Under the pieces are notes generated by a model that worked only from the letters and a program-made list of their open reading frames with translations, was not told the DNA's origin and made no database searches. The translations under genes and the position numbers were made by a program. A stretch of DNA of 64,000 bases from Candidatus Eiseniibacteriota bacterium (GTDB lineage Bacteria; Eisenbacteria; RBG-16-71-46; CAVPCR01). The stretch lies in assembly GCA_963823555.1 (NCBI GenBank), contig CAWGMA010000003.1:544001-608000 (forward strand). The letters are read 5' to 3'. Below, piece by piece: positions 33,370 to 49,592 of the stretch (positions are counted from its first letter, which is position 1; the number at the start of each line of letters is the position of its first letter).

Positions 33370-33444
33370 TCCTCGGTAGCTCAATGGTAGAGCAAGCGGC
33401 TGTTAACCGCTAGGTTGCTGGTTCGAGTCCAGCCCGGGGAGCCA
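33370..33444 (+). tRNA. tRNA-Asn (GTT)
   Basis: Acceptor TCCTCGG/CCGGGGA, D arm GCTCAATGGTAGAGC, anticodon arm AGCGG-CTGTTAA-CCGCT, GGTTCGAGTCC, encoded CCA. Confidence 0.97.
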
Positions 33445-33754
33445 TCGTCCGGAGTCGCGAGCTGCAAGCGGCTCCGTGGTTAACGCACGGCCCCGGTGGA
33501 GCGATCCGCCGGGGTCTCGTGTTAGCGCGAGATGTGGCACCGAGTTGCGCGCGCGCGCGCGGCGGGCGCGACTCTCTGTTTGCGAACCGTGCGAGTTGGG
33601 GGCCCGAGATGCGGTCGCGAAATGGGGCGGTGGGGCCCGAAACTCTCTCCCTCTCGGCGCGGGACGGAGAATTGGTGAACAGGACTGGTCTACTTGGTGG
33701 CCAAGTAGTACCGTCTTCGAACAACCTGGTAGTCTACGGCCCTGAGGCTGACCG

Positions 33755-34873: not shown

Positions 34874-35035
34874 CTGGGAGGGACTCATCCCTGGGGCCTG
34901 ATCAAGGCGAGCTACGGGCAGTAGGCGGGCGGGGGCGCACGTCGAATCGCTTGACACACGTCCGCCCGACCCGGTAGTTTATAGGCAGCAGCGTCGGCCG
35001 TAGACACGACGGCCATAGAAGACGACCTGTCACCA

Positions 35036-35172
35036 GACAGCGACCCGGCTGCGGAGCAGAAGGCGTTGTGGGTGTTGCTTCGGCACCCCGACGCCTTTTC
35101 CCGTCCTACCGCCGGAGCGGCACCCCCGACCCCTTCCTCTCCCCAGGCCGAGCGCCCTGGAGGGGATGGATG
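35036..35172 (+). promoter_or_regulatory. Structured leader, copy A (candidate RNA switch)
   Basis: CTGC-GGA-GCAG hairpin, long stem 35060-35097 with T tail, alternative partner 35117-35136, SD-sequestering hairpin before ATG 35170; homologous to 39714-39852. Confidence 0.65.
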
Positions 35173-35391
35173 GACTTCCTCCGAGACCCGGCGGTGATGA
35201 CGCCGGGGGAGCGGCTCACCGAACTGGCGGCGATCCTTGCCCAGGGGTACCTGCGGCTCCGCGCCCGACCCGAGATCGCGCTTCCCGCCGAGAGCGCCGA
35301 GAGCAGGCTGGACTCTCGGCCCGACCAGAGACCTCCATTGGACGCCGGGTTAGCGCCCGGAGACCCGGTTCGAGAGGAGGTCGTGGGATGA
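35170..35391 (+). CDS. Small hypothetical protein preceding DUF2924
   Basis: GGAGG SD; MTPGERLTELAAILAQGYLRL resembles small ORFs I associate with DUF2924 loci; ATGA overlap with the next gene. Confidence 0.6.
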   Translation: MDFLRDPAVMTPGERLTELAAILAQGYLRLRARPEIALPAESAESRLDSRPDQRPPLDAGLAPGDPVREEVVG

Positions 35392-35891
35392 AGGTGAACG
35401 TCGCCGCCGAATTCAGAGCTCTCGGGCGCATGACCGCTGGCGAGCTGCGGGAGAAATACCGGGCGGTCTTTGGCGAGGAGACGCGGTCGGGGAACCGGGA
35501 CTTCTTGCGGAAGCGGATCGCCTGGCGCATCCAGGCCCTGGCCGAGGGCGGCCTCTCTGAGCGCGCTCTCCGCCGGGCCGAGGAACTGGCCCGGGACGCC
35601 GACCTCCGCATCCGGGCGCCGAAGGGCGAGTCGTTCCCGAGCCATCCTGCTGCTGGAGACACGGTCGTCGGCCGGGTCAACGCGTCCCAGGATCGCCGGT
35701 TGCCGCTGCCGGGGACCGTGCTCGTGCGCCGGTATCGGGGCGAGACCGTCCAGGTGACCGTGCTCGACAACGGATTCGAGCACCAAGGCAAGACCTACAA
35801 GTCGTTGACGGCCGTCGCGCAGGCGATCACCAACACGCACTGGAACGGCTACCACTTCTTCGGCCTGCGCCGGAAGGGGGCCGCGTCGTGA
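35388..35891 (+). CDS. DUF2924 domain protein
   Basis: LRKRIAWRIQALAEGGLS...PGTVLVRRYRG...YKSLTAVAQAITNTHWNGYHFFGL. Confidence 0.88.
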   Translation: MKVNVAAEFRALGRMTAGELREKYRAVFGEETRSGNRDFLRKRIAWRIQALAEGGLSERALRRAEELARDADLRIRAPKGESFPSHPAAGDTVVGRVNASQDRRLPLPGTVLVRRYRGETVQVTVLDNGFEHQGKTYKSLTAVAQAITNTHWNGYHFFGLRRKGAAS

Positions 35892-37468
35892 GCGCGAAGC
35901 GTGGGGGGAAGAAGAACGGCGACCCCGCGACGCCGTCGGTCGTCAGGTGCGCAATCTACTGCCGGGTGTCTGTCGACAGAAGCCTCGACAACGGTGCGTT
36001 CACGAGCATCGATGCCCAGAGGGAGGCTGCTGAAGCCTACGTCGGAAGCCAGAAGCAGAAGGGCTGGACCGCCTTGACCGCGCATTACGACGACAGCGGA
36101 TGCTCGGGCGGGACGACGGAACGGCCTGCGCTCCAGCGGCTTCTAGCCGACGTGCGGGCGGGGAAAGTCGATTCGGTCGTCGTTTACAGACTCGACAGGT
36201 TCTCCCGCAGCCTTCTCGACTTCTCCAAACTCATGGAGGTTCTGGGCCACCACCAAGCATCTCTCGTCAGCGTTTCTGAGGCGTTCGACACCGCGACCTC
36301 GATGGGTCGGATGGTCATGCATCTGCTTGCCACCTTCGCCCAGTTCGAGCGGGAGACGATCGCCGAGAGAACGCGGGATAAAATGGGTGCTGCACGACGC
36401 CGAGGCCGATGGACCGGCGGCCACTTGCCTTTCGGCTTCGACCTAGACCCCGCCGCCGGGCGCCTCGTGGTCAACAACGCCGAGGCCGAGCGGGTGCGGG
36501 CGATCTTCCAGATGTACCTGGAGAAGCACTCGACCTTCGAGGTCCTGCGGGAACTGGCCCGCCGCCGATGGACCACGAAGCGGTGGACGACGCGGAAGGG
36601 GGAGGAGCGCGGCGGGAGAGCATTCGACAAGTCGAGGCTCTTGTACCTTCTCAAGAACGTCGTCTACATCGGCAAGGTGCGGTACGACGGAGTCGTTCAC
36701 GACGGCGCACACGAGGCGATCGTGGACGCCGACGTGTGGCAGCGAGTCCAGATGCTTATCGGACGAAACGCGGTTACAAGCGGCAGCGCTTTCCGAAACA
36801 AGCACGGCGCATTGCTCGGCGGGATCTTACGCTGCTCGAACTGCGACTGCGCAATGACGCCTTGCTACACAACCAAGAACAACCGGAGGTTTCGGTATTA
36901 CACGTGCTTGGTCGCACAACGTCACGGCTGGAACAAGTGTCCTGCCCCGTCGATTCCGGCGACCGAGATTGAGCGGTTCGTCGTCGAGCGCATCCGCGCG
37001 ATCGGCGCCGACCCGGCGCTGCGGGCCGAAGTGATCGCGCAGGCGAAGGCTGCAAGTGCATCACGAGCCGCCGAGTTGGAGCGCGAACGCCTGGACGCGG
37101 AGCGCGAGATGCGGCGCATCGCCGGCGAGATCCGGAAGGCCCTCGGGCGCGTCGAGGGCGCCGGGAACGGCGGCTCGTCGGCCACGACGCGGCTGGCCGA
37201 GTTGCAAGAGCAGGTGGCAGCAGTCGAGGACCGTGCCCGTCGTGTCCGAGATGCAATCGCCGCCCTCAACGCCGACCAGATGGACGAGAGCGCCCTCGTC
37301 TCCGCGCTGGAGCGGTTCGACCCGCTCTGGGAGACGCTCACGCCGAAGGAGCGCGCGCGGGCGATCCACCTGCTGGTCGAGCGCATCGCGTTCGACGGCG
37401 GCCGGGGGACGATCGCCATCACATTCCGGCCGGGTGGGATCAAGGCGCTCGTGGAGGGATCGAAGTGA
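35888..37468 (+). CDS. Large serine recombinase (resolvase, recombinase, zinc-ribbon and coiled-coil regions)
   Basis: AIYCRVS catalytic Ser, SGGTTERPALQRLL, VYRLDRFSRS, CSNC...YYTC, coiled coil. Confidence 0.93.
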   Translation: MSAKRGGKKNGDPATPSVVRCAIYCRVSVDRSLDNGAFTSIDAQREAAEAYVGSQKQKGWTALTAHYDDSGCSGGTTERPALQRLLADVRAGKVDSVVVYRLDRFSRSLLDFSKLMEVLGHHQASLVSVSEAFDTATSMGRMVMHLLATFAQFERETIAERTRDKMGAARRRGRWTGGHLPFGFDLDPAAGRLVVNNAEAERVRAIFQMYLEKHSTFEVLRELARRRWTTKRWTTRKGEERGGRAFDKSRLLYLLKNVVYIGKVRYDGVVHDGAHEAIVDADVWQRVQMLIGRNAVTSGSAFRNKHGALLGGILRCSNCDCAMTPCYTTKNNRRFRYYTCLVAQRHGWNKCPAPSIPATEIERFVVERIRAIGADPALRAEVIAQAKAASASRAAELERERLDAEREMRRIAGEIRKALGRVEGAGNGGSSATTRLAELQEQVAAVEDRARRVRDAIAALNADQMDESALVSALERFDPLWETLTPKERARAIHLLVERIAFDGGRGTIAITFRPGGIKALVEGSK

Positions 37469-37938
37469 CCACTGCGACACAGCGATTGGACCAGAGCGGC
37501 GGCGGCTCGTCGACCGTCGTGTTCAAGACTCACTTCCAGCGCGGGAATCGCGGCTGCCGCCGCCTGCGGGACGGCCCAGCGCCCGCGCCGCCGCCCGTCG
37601 AGCCGGGGCGCGTCCCGCGCATCAGCCGCTTGATGGCCCTCGCCATCCGCCTCGATGGGCTCGTCCGCTCGGGCGCCGTCCGCGACTACGCCGACCTGGC
37701 CAGGCTCGGACACGTGAGCCGGGCGCGGGTCACCCAGATCATGAACCTCCTAGCTTTGGCCCCGGACATCCAGGAGGCGCTCCTCTTCCTGCCGCGCACT
37801 GTCTCCGGCCGGGACCCAGTCAGGGAGCGCCAGGTGCGGCCGATAGCTGCCGTCGTGGACTGGGGGGGACAGCGCCGCCTGTGGCGGGATCTCCGGCACC
37901 GAGCGGGCCTGGACACCGAAGTGCAGGATGTCGCATGA
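37465..37938 (+). CDS. Hypothetical HTH-like protein coupled to the recombinase
   Basis: DYADLARLGHVSRARVTQIMNLLALAPDIQE; GTGA overlap with the recombinase stop. Confidence 0.75.
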   Translation: MTTATQRLDQSGGGSSTVVFKTHFQRGNRGCRRLRDGPAPAPPPVEPGRVPRISRLMALAIRLDGLVRSGAVRDYADLARLGHVSRARVTQIMNLLALAPDIQEALLFLPRTVSGRDPVRERQVRPIAAVVDWGGQRRLWRDLRHRAGLDTEVQDVA

Positions 37939-38081
37939 TCGTGGCACCGCGCCACCCGTGGCCACCGCCGTAGCCGGGGCCCGGCCACGCAATCGATAGA
38001 GGGGAGCCGTAGGGTCGCTCCCGAACGCCGCCCTGCTCGAGGCGGCTAGGCTCCCCTACCTCTCATCGAGCTAAAGGGCAC

Positions 38082-39065
38082 ATGAGCATGCCCAGTACCC
38101 AATTCGACGATGCCGAAGACCATGATCTCCCACAGTTCGGGCGTGATGCGGTGATACGCGTGCGCTTCGGTCTCCGCTACGACCCAAATGTCGAAAAGCA
38201 ATGGCCCGATCGAATCGTACAGCTGCGGGGAGCGATCTCACGCCTGGAACGAGTCAGAAGTGATACGCCAGATGCCTTTGAGCGCGCGTGTGTCACATTC
38301 CATGAATCGACGATGGGCAAAATAGCACGGTTCGTAGCGACTGGGCTCATAGGGTTCACGCACAAGTATGGGCGATGGGACGCCGTTGCCGACTACGAGA
38401 GACCCTTTATATCCCAGTACTTCTTGCTATTTCCACATTTGAAGCCCAAGCCACCGCGGCAGAAGCCAAAGGAGCTGGCGCCACATTTCTATTCAATCGC
38501 CGCGAAATGTGAGCACTTCAAGAGGCTTCTGAAGAACTTGCGCCAGTGTGATCAACAAGTACGAAAGCTGTGTACCGCAGAGGGCATCGACTATAGCCGT
38601 CTGTTCAGGAAGCTGGGAGAGGACCCTGTGCGCACCTTCGTTGGCAATGTGATCGAGTCACCACAGGTGTATGAGGTGTTGTGCGAGATAAGAGAGGTCA
38701 CGCCATCGGCATCCTCGCAAAAGATCGGGCAACGGGACTTCGAAATGGCGGTTATGAAATTCAGACTTGGCTGGGAAGTGCTGCAGTGGCACCTCATCCA
38801 ATGCGGTCTCATTCCGCCCTCGGTAGATGATCCGGCCGAAACCTATGAAGGGCCCGCTGCTGGCAACGACCTGCCCGACGTCTTAGTCGGGCAGGTACGA
38901 GCTGCATTCGAGGAGATCGAGGCGTTGCTCGAGGTTGATCGCCGCGGAAGGTACATAGAGAAGAACTACTTCGAGTGGTTCTGCGACCGGATGGCACTCG
39001 TTACGGGCACCACTTCCAGAACCGTGGCACAGAGAATCAGCGAGGACCGGAAGGGCACCCTATAG
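38082..39065 (+). CDS. Hypothetical protein (lower-GC cargo)
   Basis: 327-codon ORF, no motif recognised. Confidence 0.65.
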   Translation: MSMPSTQFDDAEDHDLPQFGRDAVIRVRFGLRYDPNVEKQWPDRIVQLRGAISRLERVRSDTPDAFERACVTFHESTMGKIARFVATGLIGFTHKYGRWDAVADYERPFISQYFLLFPHLKPKPPRQKPKELAPHFYSIAAKCEHFKRLLKNLRQCDQQVRKLCTAEGIDYSRLFRKLGEDPVRTFVGNVIESPQVYEVLCEIREVTPSASSQKIGQRDFEMAVMKFRLGWEVLQWHLIQCGLIPPSVDDPAETYEGPAAGNDLPDVLVGQVRAAFEEIEALLEVDRRGRYIEKNYFEWFCDRMALVTGTTSRTVAQRISEDRKGTL

Positions 39066-39281
39066 GCGCACTCCCCGGGGGTGGCAAGAAAAGGCTATGC
39101 CGTAAGTCATGCCACAACCATCAGATACCAGCTGCAAATTGTCACCGAGACCATCTTCAGCTGTATGGCTGGGACCGTCTGAGAGGCTGGCGGTGCTCGT
39201 CGGGCGTGGTGAAAACGCTCCGCGACCGGCGAGGCCCCCGCCAACCAAGCTGACGGGCAGGCCGTCCACGTGACGGCCACC

Positions 39282-39330
39282 GGCCCCCATGCTTCCCCTG
39301 GCGGGGCGGGAGCGTGGGGGCCTTTCTCTT
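39282..39330 (+). terminator. Intrinsic terminator/attenuator-like hairpin
   Basis: GGCCCCCATGCTTCC pairs with GGGAGCGTGGGGGCC (15 bp including G-T), followed by TTTCTCTT. Confidence 0.6.
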
Positions 39331-39372
39331 ACCGGTCTGCAAGCGGACCTATCTGGAGGTAGCACAACAACA

Positions 39373-39687
39373 ATGATGAAGTCACAACTGACACGGGCGC
39401 GAGAGCGGTTAGTAGAGCTCGCTCAGGAGCTCGACTTCGGCCAGATCGAAGGTTTGGTCGTGCGCAACGGCGACCCCGTCTTCACTCCGCCGCCTTGCGT
39501 CATGCGCGAGGTTAGAATGCACAGCGACGAGCCGCGAACTAGGCAGTGCGCATCGGACTTCAACTTGAAGCCCGAGGTGATCCACCTGCTTGCAGAAATG
39601 ACCACACTCGGGACGGGAATCATCGATCGAATAGACGTCAAGCATGGGCTGCCGTTTCGCATTCACATTAGGCAACCAATGAACTAG
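39373..39687 (+). CDS. Hypothetical protein of the element
   Basis: GGAGG SD; RLVELAQELDFGQIEGLVVRNGDPVF...IDVKHGLPF. Confidence 0.7.
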   Translation: MMKSQLTRARERLVELAQELDFGQIEGLVVRNGDPVFTPPPCVMREVRMHSDEPRTRQCASDFNLKPEVIHLLAEMTTLGTGIIDRIDVKHGLPFRIHIRQPMN

Positions 39688-39713
39688 ACCACGACAGAAA
39701 GAACAAAGCACTC

Positions 39714-39852
39714 GACAACGAGCTGGCCACGAAGTGGAGGCCGTTGTGGGTGTCGCCTCACGGCGATTCTCGCAACGGCCTTTGCTATCAGCGGCTCGTC
39801 ACTAGGCGAACACCCACACGGACTCCTCCCAGCACGGAGGAGATGCCGAATG
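39714..39852 (+). promoter_or_regulatory. Structured leader, copy B (candidate RNA switch)
   Basis: CCAC-GAA-GTGG hairpin, long stem 39738-39781 plus TT, alternative partner 39805-39826, CTCCTCC/GGAGGAG SD hairpin before ATG 39850. Confidence 0.65.
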
Positions 39853-40401
39853 GGTCAAGTTCCCCCGGACAACGGGTTCGATGAGTACGCCGCTTGCCTG
39901 ATCAGCCGCAAGGCCCGCCAACTTGTCGGCAAAGCGGGGCTCACCGCCGCCGACTGCCAGGATGTAGAGCAGGACCTGGCGCTGCACCTTCTCCAGCAAC
40001 GTCACAAGTTTGATCCCGCGCGAAGCGGCTTCCATACCTACGTCAGCAGGCTCGTCGACCGGCGGATCGCTTCGATCCTCCGCTGGCGCGGTGCTGCCAA
40101 GCGCGACTGGCGCGTGAACGGCCTCTCTCTCAACGCGCCAGTCGAGAGCGCCGATGGTGATGACGTCGAACTTGGTGACACGGTTGGTGCCAAAGACCCT
40201 CCTCTCGACCTACCTGTGGATCTGCAACGGGCGATAGACAGCCTGTCGCCGGACCTGCGAAGGCTGTGTGAACGGCTGAGGGAGGAATCGGCGTCAGAAG
40301 TGGCATTGAGGTTGGGCGTCTCCAGGGCGACCGTTCATGCGCGGATCGGGGTGATCCGGAGGGCCCTCCGGAAGAAGGGACTGCATGACTATCTGGCCTG
40401 A
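39850..40401 (+). CDS. Sigma-70 family (ECF-like) sigma factor of the element
   Basis: Region 2-like DCQDVEQDL...KFDPARSGFHTYV and region 4 HTH SASEVALRLGVSRATVHARI. Confidence 0.78.
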   Translation: MGQVPPDNGFDEYAACLISRKARQLVGKAGLTAADCQDVEQDLALHLLQQRHKFDPARSGFHTYVSRLVDRRIASILRWRGAAKRDWRVNGLSLNAPVESADGDDVELGDTVGAKDPPLDLPVDLQRAIDSLSPDLRRLCERLREESASEVALRLGVSRATVHARIGVIRRALRKKGLHDYLA

Positions 40402-40466
40402 CACTTTTCGAAGCTTTGGCGTATGTAAGGAGTAGAGGCAGGAACGTGAAAGGAGGAGCAAGCAGC

Positions 40467-41064: not shown

Positions 41065-43578
41065 GTGCCGACGCCCGGCGACGGGGTGCCTGCCATGACC
41101 CCCGACCTCACCCTTGAAGGTGGCGTCGTCGAAAGCGGTGTCGGGAGGGCTTGCACCCACACGATGGCGCAACCGCAGGCGCCACCGAGCTACCGACTCG
41201 CCTTCACTGCCGAGGAACTGCGGGCTCGGCTTCCTGCCGAGCTTGTTGCACAGTCGCAGTGGGTTGCCTGGAGATTCGAGTGGCGTGATGGCAGGTGGAG
41301 CAAGGTGCCGGTCAATGCTCGCACCGATGGACGGGCCCGAAGCAACGATCCAAGTACCTGGGCCACGTTCGACGAGGCCATGGCCTTCCATGAGTGCACC
41401 CCAAGAAGCGCCGGCATCGGGTTCGTGTTCGCGGAGGCCGATCCGTTCGCCGGCGTCGACTTGGACGGCTGCGTGGCCGGGGCTGACCAGGAAGCCAGGG
41501 TCGAGGCGTGGGCCCGAGACTTGCTCGACGCCTTCGCGACCTATGCCGAGATCTCGCCGTCAGGGCATGGCGTCAAGCTCTTCCTCCAAGGGCGAGCCCC
41601 GCACAACGGACGCCGGGCTGGGTACCCGGTCGCGGGATCGGCGGTGGAGACGTACGACCGCACGCGCTTCTTCACGGTGACAGGGCTTCGGGTGCCGGGA
41701 ACGCCCCAGGTGCTTGGGGATGCCCAGGGTGCTTTGGACGACCTCATCGCCAAGGTGTGGCCGGTGCCCCAAGGCAACCGAGATGAGGAGATCCCAGCGG
41801 CTGCCCTTGCCGTCGACGATGAGGCGCTGGTCGCCGCCGCGCTCCGTGCCCGCAACGGCGCTGACTTCGAGCGGCTGTGGGCAGGCGACTGGAAGGGTCG
41901 CTACGGGTCGCCGAGCGAGGCCGATCTTGCTCTGTGCGGAATGCTCGCGTTCTACACGGGATCCGACCCCGAGCGGATCGCCCGCCTCTTCCAACGCTCC
42001 GGCCTCTGCCGCGAGAAGTGGCAGCGCGCCGATTACCGGGAAAGAACCATCACGAAGGCCCTCGACGGCCGGACCGAGTTCTACAGCGGGCCGAGGGCCG
42101 TGCTCGTGCTGCCGCCGTCGAATGGCGGTCATCCATCCCGCGCCCTGACATCAGGCAAGGATAGAAGGCGGGGGAAGCGGAGCGCGCGTCGTGCGGTTGG
42201 CGCAGGCGATCCCAGCCGGTTCTGGGAGGGGCGAGCGTTCCGTCCCGCGCTCCTCGCCGATGAACTCATGGCTCTCGACTCCTACATCTCCACTCCCGTA
42301 GCTGACGATGGTGTGGGCGCCTTCCTCTACGCCTACCGGGATGGCGTCTACCAACGTGCGGAGGAGGTCGCGAGTAAGAAGGCCGAGTCCCTCCTCGGCG
42401 TGCGCGCCGCAAATGCGCGCATCGAAGATGCGGTGAAGCTGATACGCCGGCGGGCCGCGAGCCCGCACGACGATCTGAACCCGAGCGGGCTTGACCTCAT
42501 CAATGTCCAGAACGGCATGCTCGACTGGAAGACGGGGAAGCTCAAACCCCACGATCCAACTTGCCTCTCCACGATCCGCATCCCGGTGCGGTTCGATCCC
42601 GCCGCCAAGTCGGAGATCATCGACCGAGTTCTTCAAGACTGGCTTCCGGGTGACGCGCTCGACCTGGCCGGAGAGATGCTCGGCTACCTGCTCATCCCGA
42701 CCCGCAAGCACCAGACCGCGTTCATGCTGGTCGGGGAAGGGGAGAACGGAAAGTCCACGTTCATCAATCTCACCCGTAGTCTGCTCGGGCGCGGCAATGT
42801 GTCGAGCGAGACGCTCCATGATCTGGAAGAGAACCGCTTCCGCGTGGCCTCGCTCTTCGGCAAGCTGGCGAACCTCTGTGCAGACATCGACGATCGGGCG
42901 CTGCAGTTCACGAGCGTCTTCAAGAAGATCACCGGGGACGACTCGCTCTCGGCCGAGCGCAAGCACCAGCACCCGTTTGACTTCGATCCCTTCGCCCGTT
43001 TGATCTTCTCAGCCAACACTCCCCCTGCCCCGCGCAACGACCGCACTCACGCCTTCTTTCGCCGCTGGGTGGTCGTCCCCTTCGACAACAAGTTCCGCGA
43101 CGGCGAGAAGCGGGACCGAGATCTACCGAAGAAGATCACGACCCCGGAGGCGCTCTCGGCCTTGCTCAATATCGCCGTCGCCGGGCTGCAGCGGCTGGAG
43201 GCGAGGGGCGAGTTTGCCCTGCCCGAGTCGGTGCGGCAGGCGGGTGAGAAGTACCGGCGGGAGGCCGACGCCGTTTACACGTTCATCAGCGAAGAGTGCG
43301 CGAAGGGCGGTCAGGATGCCCGCGTCTCTGCCACCGACCTCCAGAGATCGTTCCGCGCCTGGTGCGCAGAGAACGGGTACCGGAACGTTCCCCCGAAGAA
43401 GGCCCTGGAGCGGCAGTTGGTCGAACTGCTCGGCGCGGAGAAGGAGCGAGCACGGGTCGGGGGACGCAAGAACGCCGTGGTGGTTTGGCGCGGCATCACG
43501 TGCTCGTACTCACCCCCGGCCCAGGGGGAGGCCGGGGCGGATGGGTCCTCCCTGGCGCCGGAGGACCGGTGGCCATGA
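41065..43578 (+). CDS. Primase-polymerase fused to D5/SF3 helicase (P4-family phage/plasmid primase); start uncertain
   Basis: QWVAW...KVP, GVDLD, EISPSGHG prim-pol motifs; SEADLAL; INVQNGML; Walker A GEGENGKST; FSAN; FFRRW. Confidence 0.9.
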   Translation: MPTPGDGVPAMTPDLTLEGGVVESGVGRACTHTMAQPQAPPSYRLAFTAEELRARLPAELVAQSQWVAWRFEWRDGRWSKVPVNARTDGRARSNDPSTWATFDEAMAFHECTPRSAGIGFVFAEADPFAGVDLDGCVAGADQEARVEAWARDLLDAFATYAEISPSGHGVKLFLQGRAPHNGRRAGYPVAGSAVETYDRTRFFTVTGLRVPGTPQVLGDAQGALDDLIAKVWPVPQGNRDEEIPAAALAVDDEALVAAALRARNGADFERLWAGDWKGRYGSPSEADLALCGMLAFYTGSDPERIARLFQRSGLCREKWQRADYRERTITKALDGRTEFYSGPRAVLVLPPSNGGHPSRALTSGKDRRRGKRSARRAVGAGDPSRFWEGRAFRPALLADELMALDSYISTPVADDGVGAFLYAYRDGVYQRAEEVASKKAESLLGVRAANARIEDAVKLIRRRAASPHDDLNPSGLDLINVQNGMLDWKTGKLKPHDPTCLSTIRIPVRFDPAAKSEIIDRVLQDWLPGDALDLAGEMLGYLLIPTRKHQTAFMLVGEGENGKSTFINLTRSLLGRGNVSSETLHDLEENRFRVASLFGKLANLCADIDDRALQFTSVFKKITGDDSLSAERKHQHPFDFDPFARLIFSANTPPAPRNDRTHAFFRRWVVVPFDNKFRDGEKRDRDLPKKITTPEALSALLNIAVAGLQRLEARGEFALPESVRQAGEKYRREADAVYTFISEECAKGGQDARVSATDLQRSFRAWCAENGYRNVPPKKALERQLVELLGAEKERARVGGRKNAVVVWRGITCSYSPPAQGEAGADGSSLAPEDRWP

Positions 43579-43584
43579 CCCAAG

Positions 43585-43702
43585 TGTGTCGGTTGTGTCG
43601 ATTGTGTCAAAACCGCCTACTTCTCTCCCCGTTAAACAGTGCACTGGAAGCGCGTATAGGAGAAAAGTGGGGGGGACCGACACAACCGACACAATCGACA
43701 CA
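43585..43702. repeat. Inverted iteron clusters, candidate replication origin
   Basis: TGTGTC at 43585, 43594, 43603 and GACACA at 43679, 43688, 43697 (9-bp period). Confidence 0.75.
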
Positions 43703-43991: not shown

Positions 43992-44531
43992 ATGCCTGAT
44001 CACATTACGGTTCGCGATACGTCCACCCTTCCCCCGCACAAGGAAGGCCAGTTTGCCGCCATTTGCGCCGACGTGATTGATCTCGGCCAACGCGTGGAGA
44101 CCTACCCCGGCTCCTCGCCGCGTGTCGTGAGGAAGGTGGGTCTGGTCTTCGTCACGACCGAGCACCGCCAGGATGGCAAACCCAGCACAGTGAGTACTGA
44201 GTTCACCGTATCCATGAACGAGCGAGCGGGTCTGCGGCGGTTCCTCGAGAGCTGGCGTGGGCGGTCCTACACACCAGACGAGACGGCGGGCGATGCTCCG
44301 TTGCGTCGCCTGGTCGGGCAACCAGCTCTTCTCACGCTCGAGAATCGGTGCAGTGCCAAAGGACGGAACTACGCCAAGATCGCGAGCATCGCGCCCTTGC
44401 CGAAGGGCAAGCCAGCCCCTGAGGTTAACGGGTACCGGCGCTCCCTTAGCTGGGAAGAGCGGAAGAAGCTCTATGAGGCCGAGGTGGCACGCCACATGGC
44501 GGGTCCTGGTGCCACCGCCGTGGGGCAGTGA
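43992..44531 (+). CDS. Phage-type hypothetical protein (possible ssDNA-binding/replication accessory)
   Basis: GAGGAG SD; EGQFAAICADVIDLG...SMNERAGLRRFLESWRG...YAKIASIAPLPKG resembles phage replication-module proteins. Confidence 0.6.
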   Translation: MPDHITVRDTSTLPPHKEGQFAAICADVIDLGQRVETYPGSSPRVVRKVGLVFVTTEHRQDGKPSTVSTEFTVSMNERAGLRRFLESWRGRSYTPDETAGDAPLRRLVGQPALLTLENRCSAKGRNYAKIASIAPLPKGKPAPEVNGYRRSLSWEERKKLYEAEVARHMAGPGATAVGQ

Positions 44532-46797: not shown

Positions 46798-47508
46798 CCG
46801 ACGACACGAAGGCGCCTGTGGCGCACAAAGGGCGCGCCAGTGCGCGAGTTGGGCCGAAGATGGTACCCCTGGACGACCTGAGGCCACACCCGCTGAACTC
46901 GAACGTGATGCCCGAGGACTTGCGGGAGAAGCTCAAGGCGCACATCAAGCGCACGGGGCGGTATCCGTTCCTGGTGGTCCGCCCACACCCCGAGGAGCCA
47001 GGGCAAGTACCAGGTCCTCGACGGCCACCACCGGGTCGAGGTGCTCCGCGAACTCGGCTACACCGAGGCCCGCTGCGACGTGTGGGACGTGGACGACCGC
47101 GAGGCGAAGCTGCTGCTCGCCACGCTGAACCGGCTTGCAGGGCCAGGACCTGCCCATCCGCCGGGCCCAGCTCATCCACGAGCTGCTCGGGCGAGATGAG
47201 CGTCGCCGACCTGGCCGGGCTCCTCCCCGAGACCGACAAGCAGATCGAGGAGCTGCACGCGCTGCTTGGAGTTCCCGGCCGAGGAGATCGCCGCGCTCCT
47301 CGACGCCGAGGCCGAGGAGGCCGAGAAGGTCCTGCCGCGGGTCATGAGCTTCGTCGTGACCCCCGAGCAGGAGGAGATGATCGAGCAGGCGGTCGAGCTG
47401 GCGAGCGACGGCACCCCGGGCCGGGACCGGAAGGCGCGAGGCCTCGCGAACCTCGCCAGGCACTTCCTGAAGGAAGGGGCCGATGCAGACGCACTCGAAG
47501 AAGCGTGA
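46794..47508 (+). CDS. ParB/Srx N-terminal domain protein (split by indels)
   Basis: VPLDDLRPHPLN...LVVRP...YQVLDGHHR reconstructed across frames. Confidence 0.8.
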
Positions 47509-48052
47509 GGAAGCCCGTCGGCTCTATCTCACCGGCGAGATGACCACGAACGCCGAGATCGCTGCCCGGCTCAAGGCGAAGCCGCACACGGTCGGCAGGT
47601 GGCGCCGGGAAGAGGACTGGGACGGGCTTCGCCTGAAGATCGACCGCCGGGCGGCAGAACTGTTCGTCGAGAAGATCGCCACCGATCGGGTGACCTTGAA
47701 CGTGCGGCACTACAGGCTCTGGGAACTGATTCTGGCGAAGCTGATGGAAGACCTGAAGGCGAAGCACGTCCTCGATGTCAGAGACATGGAACGGATCGCG
47801 GGCATCTTGGATCGGGCCCAGAAGGGGCAGCGGTTGGCCAAGGGGATGAGCGTAGCCGGCGAGACCGAGGAGGCCATCCGAGCCGAAGCGCAGGCCGAGA
47901 TCCGCAGGCTCATCGACGTGTTCATCGACGCCGTCAAGGAGAACGTGAGCGATGAAGAGACGCGGGATCGCATCCGCCGCACGATCCTCGATGCACTACC
48001 TTCGGAAGAGGACACGGGAACTGGCGACGGCGACAACGCGCTCGTTCAGTGA
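47483..48052 (+). CDS. Putative terminase small subunit (N-terminal HTH)
   Basis: REEARRLYL...NAEIAARLKAKPHTVGRWRREEDW; directly upstream of the large subunit. Confidence 0.65.
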   Translation: MQTHSKKREEARRLYLTGEMTTNAEIAARLKAKPHTVGRWRREEDWDGLRLKIDRRAAELFVEKIATDRVTLNVRHYRLWELILAKLMEDLKAKHVLDVRDMERIAGILDRAQKGQRLAKGMSVAGETEEAIRAEAQAEIRRLIDVFIDAVKENVSDEETRDRIRRTILDALPSEEDTGTGDGDNALVQ

Positions 48053-49592
48053 TCCACTTGCCGCGTGGGCGGTGAAACGGATCCGGCTCGACGGCTCGCC
48101 CTTTCGCTTCGAGGGCCACGAGTACCTGCGGGCGATCTACGACGACACGTCGCCGCACGTCGTCGTCCCGAAGGCGGCGCAGATCGGTGGCACCACCTGG
48201 GCGATCCTGCGCTCCGTCCATGCCTGCCTCTCAGGTCTCAACGTCATGTACTTCTTCCCGACCCGGACCGATGTGCTCGACTTCTCGAAGTCCCGGGTGT
48301 CGCCGCTTCTTGGCCGACAACCCGTTCCTCGCCAAGATGATGACCGACACCGACACCGCTGGGCTCAAGCGGATCGGGGAAGCGCATCTCTACCTGCGCG
48401 GGATGCAGTCGACCGTCGGCATGAAGTCGGTGCCGGCCGACATGATCGTCTTCGATGAACTGGACGAGGCCACGCCCGAGGCGAAGGCCATGGCCCGGGA
48501 GCGGCTCGCGCACTCGCGACTACAAGCGGATCATCGAGCTGTCGAACCCGACCCTGCCGGACTACGGCATCGACGAGAGCTACCAGGCGTCGGACCAGCG
48601 CCACTGGACCCTGAAGTGTCCCGCCTGCGGTCACTGGACGGCTCTCGACAGGGAGTTCCCGACGAAGCTGGGCGAGGAGGTGAAGATCATCCTGCCCCGC
48701 CCCGATGGCACCTTCTACCGAGCCTGTCCGAAGTGCTCGGCGGAGCTGGATCTGGCGGCAGGTGAGTGGGTGGCTGACTTCCCCGACCGCCCGATCCACG
48801 GCTACCGCATCAGCCAGCTGTTCAGCGACAAGGTCGACCCCGGCGAGATCTTGCACGAGTACCGCACCACCCGCTTCCCGGACCGGTTCTACAACCTGAA
48901 GATCGGGATCCCCTGGGCCGACCTGGAACGCCGCCTCGATATGTCGACGTGTCCTCGCTTGCTGCAGCGACGACACCATGGAAGACGAGGCGCAGAGCCA
49001 GGGGACGTACTGGATGGGGGTCGACACCGGCAGCGCCTTCCACGTCGTCGTCCTCAAGCACGAGAGCGGGGACACGGACGGTGATGGCCTGAGGCAGGTC
49101 CGACTGGTCCACCTCGCCGTCTGCCACGACTTCTCTGACCTCGATGCGATCATGAAGCGCTTCAGGATCTTCCGCTGCGTCATCGACGGGTTGCCCGAGA
49201 CCCACGCCACCCGGGACTTCGCCAAGCGCCACCGAGGCCACGTGTTCATGTGCTTCTTCAACGAGCACCAGCGGGGCGAGATGAAGTGGGATCGAGAGGC
49301 GCACACCGTGCAGGTCAACCGCACCGAGGCCCTCGATGCCTCACGGGCGGCGGTCCGGGACAAGAAGGTCATCCTGCCGCGCCGGCTGCCCAGTCGTCGA
49401 GACGTTCGCCCGGCACATGGCGTCCGACGCCAAGGTGCTCGATGAGGACGAAGAGACGGGGGCGAAGAAGTACCGGTACGTCCGGACCGGCGAGGACCAC
49501 TTCTCCCTGGCGTTCACTTACGCCTGGATGGCGGCTGAGCGGCACGGGGGGCCGAGTCAGCCGCGGGTCATCCGCATCGACCTGAACGATAG
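47952..49592 (+). CDS. Phage terminase large subunit, gpA-like (split by indels; ends approximate)
   Basis: VVVPKAAQIGGT (Walker A variant), IVFDELDE (Walker B), SNPT, CPACGH/CPKC, nuclease WMGVDTG and EDHF. Confidence 0.83.

Follow-up and report, generated by a model that had tools for sequence, protein, structure and literature searches.

A two-loop hairpin RNA duplicated before the recombinase operon and the sigma gene of a phage-like element, and a strong candidate for its protein partner

A stretch of 64,000 nucleotides (nt) from Candidatus Eiseniibacteriota bacterium (assembly GCA_963823555.1, contig CAWGMA010000003.1, positions 544,001 to 608,000), analysed as a whole and referred to as the window, carries a temperate-phage-like element, probably defective here, in which two groups of genes are preceded by copies of the same RNA leader. 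All features lie on the plus strand unless stated otherwise. The first copy (copy A) stands before a recombinase operon that begins with a small conserved open reading frame (ORF) of 73 amino acids (aa; 35170..35391; Shine-Dalgarno (SD) sequence 35159-35163), which has no family and no PHROG or NCBIfam match, and continues with a DUF2924 gene (35388..35891; Pfam PF11149, E 8.7e-45) and a gene for a large serine recombinase (35888..37468; PF00239, PF07508, PF13408). The second (copy B) lies between an unnamed ORF of 104 aa (39373..39687), here called ORF-X, and the gene for an extracytoplasmic function (ECF)-like sigma-70 factor (39850..40401; PF04542; phrog_1740, E 2.4e-12; TIGR02937, E 5.4e-10, below its cut-off), beyond which a primase/D5-type replication protein is encoded (41065..43578; PF19263, PF22763, PF08706). 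On comparative sequence evidence, the element shared by the two leaders is an uncatalogued cis-regulatory RNA hairpin, and ORF-X, which consists of two DUF2292/YezD-like helix-plus-beta-hairpin repeats, is a candidate RNA-binding partner.

The duplication had been reported in a preliminary description of the window, and the gapless match of 35036-35078 to 39714-39756 was borne out: 32 of the 43 positions are identical, and the runner-up 43-mer in the 4.62-Mb genome, on either strand, reaches 28 with copy A as the query and 29 with copy B. The short hairpin described within this segment is also present with its two compensatory pairs (columns 23-31, U-A versus C-G; columns 24-30, G-C versus A-U), and the SD sequences and start codons of both leaders lie where they had been placed. 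The description overlooked the unit that is conserved, a two-loop hairpin, and emphasized a second, longer stem instead. Many recombinase-side copies stop after the first 45 nt, with SD and start codon immediately behind, so that this second stem is not what defines the unit. Within the shared 43-mer, the 5' segment pairs with the 3' segment, which gives a single long hairpin whose 3' strand has three partners.

The conserved unit is a 42-nt hairpin interrupted by two 2x1 purine internal loops, AG/G in the lower and GR/A in the upper one, which form a direct repeat with a spacing of 12 nt along the 5' strand. Copy A of this core (35032..35073) forms 15 of 16 consensus pairs and scores 48.5 bits, being outside the training set; its lower AG/G loop is intact, and a C.A mismatch widens the upper loop, as in the long A leaders of genome G009. 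Copy B (39710..39751), 22 nt past the ORF-X stop codon, forms all 16 pairs and scores 59.9 bits as a member of the training set; its upper GG/A loop is intact, and its lower loop is a variant with CG for AG, whereas the element from the same genus keeps AG. A covariance model found exactly these two strong sites in the window (next 13.3 bits), and the two cores differ at 11 of 43 positions with their pairs kept. Searches with a pattern and a hidden Markov model (HMM) gave 177 unique matches, 89 before the small ORF/DUF2924 genes, 73 before sigma genes and 15 left unassigned, the expression platforms differing between recombinase-side and sigma-side copies. According to their record titles, the loci are mostly from Planctomycetota, with Desulfobacterota, Acidobacteriota, Nitrospira and others also represented. 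Several actinobacterial pattern matches (e.g. L156, L157, L188, L195, L216, L218) are absent from the HMM matches and were taken as chance.

Homologous leaders were collected and a covariance model was built, and the covariation anticipated in the preliminary description was found in the core hairpin as well as in both alternative stems considered below. The core alignment held 93 non-redundant sequences, after 16 of 176 matches off the ungapped core pattern and 67 redundant ones had been left out. Of its 1488 cells, 95.0% are paired, and 10 of the 16 pairs show two-sided changes; none of 500 shuffles was as high in percentage paired, changed cells or score. Furthermore, RNAalifold unaided recovers 15 of the 16 pairs, and the top eight pairs by mutual information with average product correction (MI-APC) are all helix pairs. 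The excess of G-U over A-C cells (112 versus 26) favours a sense-strand RNA, as had been claimed; on this ground, and from its position between promoter and SD, a DNA-level site was rejected. A hidden SD-GTG leader peptide within the core was rejected as well because the frames are not conserved, and a conserved upstream leader ORF is absent, with indels of 1-2 nt in B leaders and a variable frame from the core GTG to the start codon in short A leaders.

The claim that the RNA belongs to no named family also stood, as a scan of both leaders against Rfam 15 (E<=10) returned only chance matches below threshold, none of C4 type. At the gathering score a tRNA was the sole Rfam match, no catalogued riboswitch class matches the leaders, and the motif in four homologous loci and six DUF2292 loci yielded nothing. 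A scan for sigma-70 promoters and terminators flagged neither leader. No paper on the hairpin RNA or ORF-X was found in a literature search, which did not cover the supplements of PMC11109978 and PMC5737381 (these may list the motif).

The 3' strand of the core, referred to as the switch strand, has alternative partners downstream. A proximal, terminator-like stem is formed in copy A at 35058..35099 (19 pairs, folding z -5.8), where it excludes the core and ends in four T, and in copy B at 39734..39785 (23 pairs, z -8.4), where it is the most stable state and has a weak T tail; a small conserved internal loop lies in this stem. The proximal stem corresponds to the second stem of the preliminary description, which exists in both copies; the T runs with which it was said to end are short (four T at 35096-35099, three at copy B), making termination at the window copies doubtful. 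The second, downstream partner noted for its 5' arm is likewise present in both. In copy A, 35116..35136 pairs with 35059-35079 (19 pairs) in what is the lowest-energy state in the model; in copy B, 39805..39830 pairs with 39734-39757 (22 pairs) and overlaps the 5' arm of a predicted hairpin that hides the sigma SD (39823..39842). Control of the SD by this distal pairing held for one copy only: the modelled SD unpaired probability is 0.82 in the distal state versus 0.14 in copy B, whereas the SD of copy A stays closed (0.17 versus 0.11-0.13). The two-state switch originally envisaged is replaced by a three-state one (core, proximal, distal), as far as alignments and folding models indicate. 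In the model of the window leaders, the core prevails as soon as it has been transcribed and gives way once the whole proximal arm has been made.

Both alternative stems covary in 38 long leaders, namely 37 sigma-side leaders and window copy A (alignment A3, from which three short-platform B leaders were left out and to which window copy A was added). The proximal stem is 86.8% paired with 25 two-sided cells, and the distal pairing 93.4% with 24. Among 38 sigma leaders, the leader's own partner was preferred over the mean of the others in 36 for the upstream, 32 for the proximal and 35 for the distal strand. Median energies in these leaders were -61.7 (core), -76.0 (proximal) and -62.4 kcal/mol (distal), and the median SD access was 0.55 in the distal state versus 0.04 (core) and 0.13. 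A U-tract is present behind the proximal stem in 41 of 106 sigma leaders, compared with 15 of 424 control windows, but in only 2 of 23 long recombinase leaders. The switch strand of short A leaders can instead form a stem over the start codon, and forcing the core in 46 A leaders increased access to the ribosome-binding site (RBS) in 36 and decreased it in one.

The motif is located 3' of 117 of 126 ORF-X homologues, with the core starting 8-55 nt past the stop codon in 115 of the 117; four of the nine homologues without a match show divergent versions by eye. At loci L338, L341, L041 and L053, divergent cores that the HMM missed follow ORF-X with the switch layout kept. Co-occurrence was assessed in 77 elements holding both DUF2924 and sigma genes, trees being limited to such loci. 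Copy B is present in 56 of 58 elements with ORF-X and in none of 19 without it, and copy A, which lies kilobases from ORF-X, in 45 of 58 and 1 of 19, respectively; the sole X-less element with copy A has a damaged upper loop. No ORF-X was found upstream of copy A (0 of 89). Three other conserved genes, namely the small ORF, the accessory ORF behind the recombinase gene and the ORF that follows sigma, do not track the motif in these elements and were rejected as partners. ORF-X is considered a strong candidate for the trans-acting partner of the hairpin. Two ORF-X-like genes stand in tandem at L201:1753-2450.

ORF-X is a conserved protein by alignment and well folded in the model, with an internal repeat of a helix plus beta-hairpin (hhalign 93%; AlphaFold pLDDT 91.7), and its relatives form about 1,900 clusters at 50% identity. 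Fold searches gave a best Foldseek E of 1.1 (PDB) and 0.56 (viral library) and a best VIA Z of 3.4, weak matches that do not show the fold to be new; no significant PDB sequence match, named Atlas cluster or match in GenBank phages was obtained. Neither a CAT (PF03123) nor a PRD domain was detected in 68 ORF-X members (E<=0.5) or in 29 window proteins. Single-repeat DUF2292 genes have a one-loop hairpin of the core upper-loop type just downstream in 9 of 13 canonical loci (3 of 390 shuffles), the remaining four lacking it; these hairpins overlap plain terminators, and the two-loop covariance model has no match in the one-loop loci. The association of one repeat with one loop and of two repeats with two loops, a correlation, is the most suggestive result of the study. 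Genome G000, that of the window, has no PF10055 (DUF2292) match. In two Bacillaceae loci (L449:469-574, L450:483-591), yezD lies between a SAM-I riboswitch and a one-loop hairpin, before a phosphoadenosine phosphosulfate (PAPS) reductase gene, a layout that can be read as tandem control of sulfur genes. In L442 and L444, two one-loop hairpins follow a single-repeat DUF2292 gene in tandem, the second copy passing the scan in L444.

Promoter-like sites of the pattern YGWCR-N15-SGGTAnGTA precede leader A (34952..34980, third-best in the window) and the replication genes (40399..40427, second-best, at the sigma stop codon). The best-scoring site (44099-44127) is on the minus strand and points back to the replication genes; a possible product is an antisense or origin transcript. 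The pattern occurs in 27 of 46 non-redundant A-upstream regions versus 1.6% of shuffles, and a weight matrix places it upstream of 68 of 89 homologues of the ORF that follows sigma but of only 2 of 119 ORF-X and 1 of 119 sigma genes. The sites are probably read by the element's own sigma factor. Copy B would thus gate sigma, whereas the replication genes would start from their own site. The co-regulation initially proposed therefore stands in that a leader precedes both the recombinase operon and the sigma gene, and does not extend to the replication genes.

The favoured interpretation, held with somewhat better than even confidence, is that ORF-X binds and holds the first-folding hairpin and blocks the OFF helix, which would constitute an ON-switch similar in logic to LicT and its ribonucleic antiterminator (RAT) that gates both sigma and recombinase. 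The two-loop hairpin would serve as a protein-binding site on nascent mRNA, with one repeat of ORF-X per loop. As transcription proceeds, the hairpin would fold first; without ORF-X its 3' strand would be captured by the more stable OFF helix. In sigma leaders this helix would be the proximal stem, acting as a terminator in part of the family and burying the SD in all; short recombinase leaders would use the stem that covers the start codon. Bound ORF-X would hold the hairpin through the competing window, making short recombinase leaders translatable. In sigma leaders, the polymerase would clear the proximal arm and the strand would then pass to its distal partner, unmasking the SD. The sigma factor may then fire the promoters before the replication genes and the recombinase operon. 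The latter would also require ORF-X at copy A, so that the recombinase operon would need both proteins, forming a feed-forward AND gate for induction. The control of dormancy versus excision suggested in the preliminary description remains an inference.

A number of observations weigh against this interpretation. Its weak point is that the sigma SD stays closed in the models as long as the core is locked (median access 0.04, compared with 0.55 in the distal state), so that binding alone could not start translation and the hand-over to the distal partner is required; forcing the core in 39 B leaders increased access in 6 and decreased it in 11. The RBS-hiding stem of short A leaders favours its own partner in only 24 of 39, and many leaders have no strong U-tract (65 of 106 B leaders and 21 of 23 long A leaders, as well as the two copies of the window). 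The co-occurrence tree yields only five independent contrasts (three in an earlier tree); copy B follows ORF-X in 4.9 of these (p 0.06) and copy A in 1.6 (p 0.5), with none opposite, and an ORF-X scored as absent may sit beyond the fetched locus. The link to DUF2292 is weak: 4 of 68 ORF-X members match PF10055 (best E 3.3e-4), ORF-X of the window has no Pfam match, and hhalign gives 68% and 26% for the two ORF-X halves. ORF-X has a net charge of about 0, and some of the conserved basic residues are lost in the copy of the window. Finally, several core columns were fixed by the search pattern, so that selection accounts for part of their invariance; the pattern left the columns that covary free or open to variation.

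The main rival explanation is that ORF-X binds the core but represses the sigma leader in an immunity-like manner, whatever its role at copy A. In B leaders, only the distal state exposes the SD (access exceeds that of the proximal state in 27 of 38 and that of the core state in 30 of 38), and the core and distal energies are nearly equal. However, without ORF-X the proximal OFF stem is already about 14 kcal/mol more stable, so a repressor would be superfluous; furthermore, the core is the ON state in short A leaders, and the overlap of one-loop hairpins with plain terminators after DUF2292 genes also argues against repression. This explanation is considered improbable, although it deserves more weight than the others, which are less likely. 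Lambda nut and HK022 put are sites that make polymerase processive, and the hairpin could be a loading site of this type, with ORF-X acting as the factor, and not a local competitor of one helix. The placement of both copies close to where a transcription unit starts, the co-occurrence with ORF-X and the many leaders without a real terminator would suit such a site, for which the covarying local partners of the switch strand, translational ones included, would be needless; the proposal appears quite unlikely.

It is very unlikely that the core is the aptamer of a small-molecule riboswitch with exchangeable platforms and ORF-X a linked passenger. A conserved 5' domain with variable platforms and conserved purine loops are features that such a riboswitch would have, but the hairpin is simple and unbranched, only phage regulatory genes lie downstream, just 1 of 19 X-less elements has the distant copy A, and the loop number matches the repeat number. 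Just as little credence is given to an antisense RNA of the C4/CI type, in which a terminated or processed proximal hairpin would act in trans on upstream and downstream targets. One segment is indeed complementary to both upstream and downstream sequence, and the small internal loop of the proximal stem could nucleate pairing. Against this stand the lack of a C4-type Rfam match, a switch strand that is paired in every state, short A leaders that consist of the core only, A and B cores that differ at 11 of 43 positions while keeping their pairs, and the absence of an icd/ant-type gene downstream. Least probable of all is that translation of ORF-X, which stops just upstream, sets the fold of copy B while the protein itself is irrelevant. 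The start of the core 8-55 nt behind the ORF-X stop would fit such coupling, but copy A has no upstream ORF-X and yet depends on its presence in the element, ORF-X is conserved and, in the model, well folded, and no leader-peptide frame is conserved.

Other features bear on the nature of the element. A tRNA-Asn gene (33370..33444) just to its left marks a possible integration neighbourhood, and no second copy of two tRNA segments, as an att duplication would give, was found within the window. At the left end of the element (33570-33660) and upstream of many A leaders, ACTCTC-type words recur together with a GTTAAC word; these conserved sequences are candidate attachment arms for the recombinase. 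A conserved accessory ORF follows the recombinase gene (37465..37938; phrog_14161, E 2.3e-17), and a cargo gene separates it from ORF-X in the window element. Upstream of ORF-X is a G+C-rich, terminator-like hairpin with a pyrimidine tail (39282..39322, folding z -2.8), which may act as an additional gate, and many ORF-X homologues (e.g. L395, L381, L294, L360) have a second, different leader resembling an antiterminator/terminator before ORF-X; this second leader may be where the cascade takes its input. Directly behind the primase gene, 43585-43702 contains a 44-nt inverted repeat and repeated GACACA-type units and is origin-like. A terminase small subunit and a large subunit are encoded at 47483..49530, the large one in several frames because of a broken gene or an assembly error; the split of the large subunit (47952-49530) is consistent with a decayed prophage or with long-read errors. 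Among the ORFs scanned downstream of the terminase, none was recognised as a portal or capsid gene or as any other phage gene. The gene order recurs in 59 viral loci fetched with DUF2924, and phage recombination and replication genes follow sigma in two of three homologous elements scanned; the sigma protein as the lone query retrieved no viral loci. A second, divergent DUF2924 element in the same genome (G000:C2, about 706900-708900; L271) has a degenerate leader and a truncated recombinase match, with no ORF-X or sigma gene within the fetched 20 kb.

The closest parallel to the proposed switch is found in the BglG/SacY/LicT family. In the accounts of LicT in PMC3105407 and PMC12591593, the dimer contacts two internal loops of a RAT hairpin that competes with a terminator. 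Like the RAT as presented in PMC3105407, the hairpin is short, has two asymmetric internal loops and cannot coexist with a more stable stem further downstream; two protein units would serve two loops, and the hairpin would be the ON conformer in both systems. In contrast, ORF-X has no CAT or PRD match and carries its two units fused in one 104-aa chain, the loops are in direct repeat about a turn apart, the platforms include masking of SD and start codon and a third state, and the targets are a phage sigma factor and a recombinase instead of sugar genes. Because no CAT or PRD domain was found, the hairpin/ORF-X pair is, on domain content, not a member of the BglG/LicT RAT system. The one-loop DUF2292/YezD/OscA loci share the loop type (CY-GR...A-GG), the position of the hairpin directly after a small gene and a competing downstream stem; the present system differs in having two loops, a protein of two repeats that falls short of the Pfam cut-off, a switch with three states and a circuit of prophage sigma and recombinase genes.

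In P4 CI, one segment is complementary to both upstream and downstream sequence (seqA/seqB/seqC). The phage leaders described here resemble P1/P7 C4 and P4 CI in having such a segment, and C4/CI controls the lytic decision; they differ in the absence of an Rfam match, of exposed antisense loops and of icd/ant genes, and in the indication of a protein partner. By Rfam and gene context, the hairpin is not a C4/CI RNA, a class for which PMC2864571 points to Rfam entry RF01695 and PMC5499578 to processing by RNase P. The mobile-element sigma factor SigN (ZpdN) of pBS32, presented in PMC6751061 as repressed by LexA and as a master switch, is a parallel for the proposed role of sigma as master switch of the element genes, differing in that the sigma gene here stands behind an RNA switch and not under LexA repression.

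The small zinc-binding protein Com of phage Mu activates translation of its one target by opening an RNA structure that lies just downstream of the com gene. ORF-X would likewise be a small phage protein whose gene directly precedes an RNA structure that it would open so that translation can proceed, and its alignment contains no zinc-binding motif. If correct, the proposed mechanism would add an uncatalogued cis-regulatory RNA family, provide a function for a protein family of about 1,900 clusters without a clear structural match, and give DUF2292/YezD a directly testable role in RNA binding, in which loop number equals repeat number. It would also represent a different form of prophage control, in which an RNA gate leads to the element's own sigma factor and from there to replication and recombination, in phyla with barely studied phages. 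A 42-nt site and a 104-aa protein are small enough for prompt testing and for reuse as an orthogonal ON switch. A more sweeping generalization is offered tentatively and is doubtful in its entirety: temperate elements across Planctomycetota, Desulfobacterota, Acidobacteriota and others might be induced by an RNA-protein switch instead of a lambda-type repressor. In this scheme, a fused two-repeat DUF2292-like protein would read a two-loop hairpin through a modular code of one repeat per loop that is insulated from the one-loop systems of the host. The protein would drive a refolding through three states in a kinetic order, in which the OFF stem is blocked before the sigma RBS is opened, and would gate the recombinase in a feed-forward loop. 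Compared with the systems above, the hairpin, an uncatalogued RNA, and ORF-X, its strong candidate partner, are best regarded as a variant of protein-controlled RNA switches.

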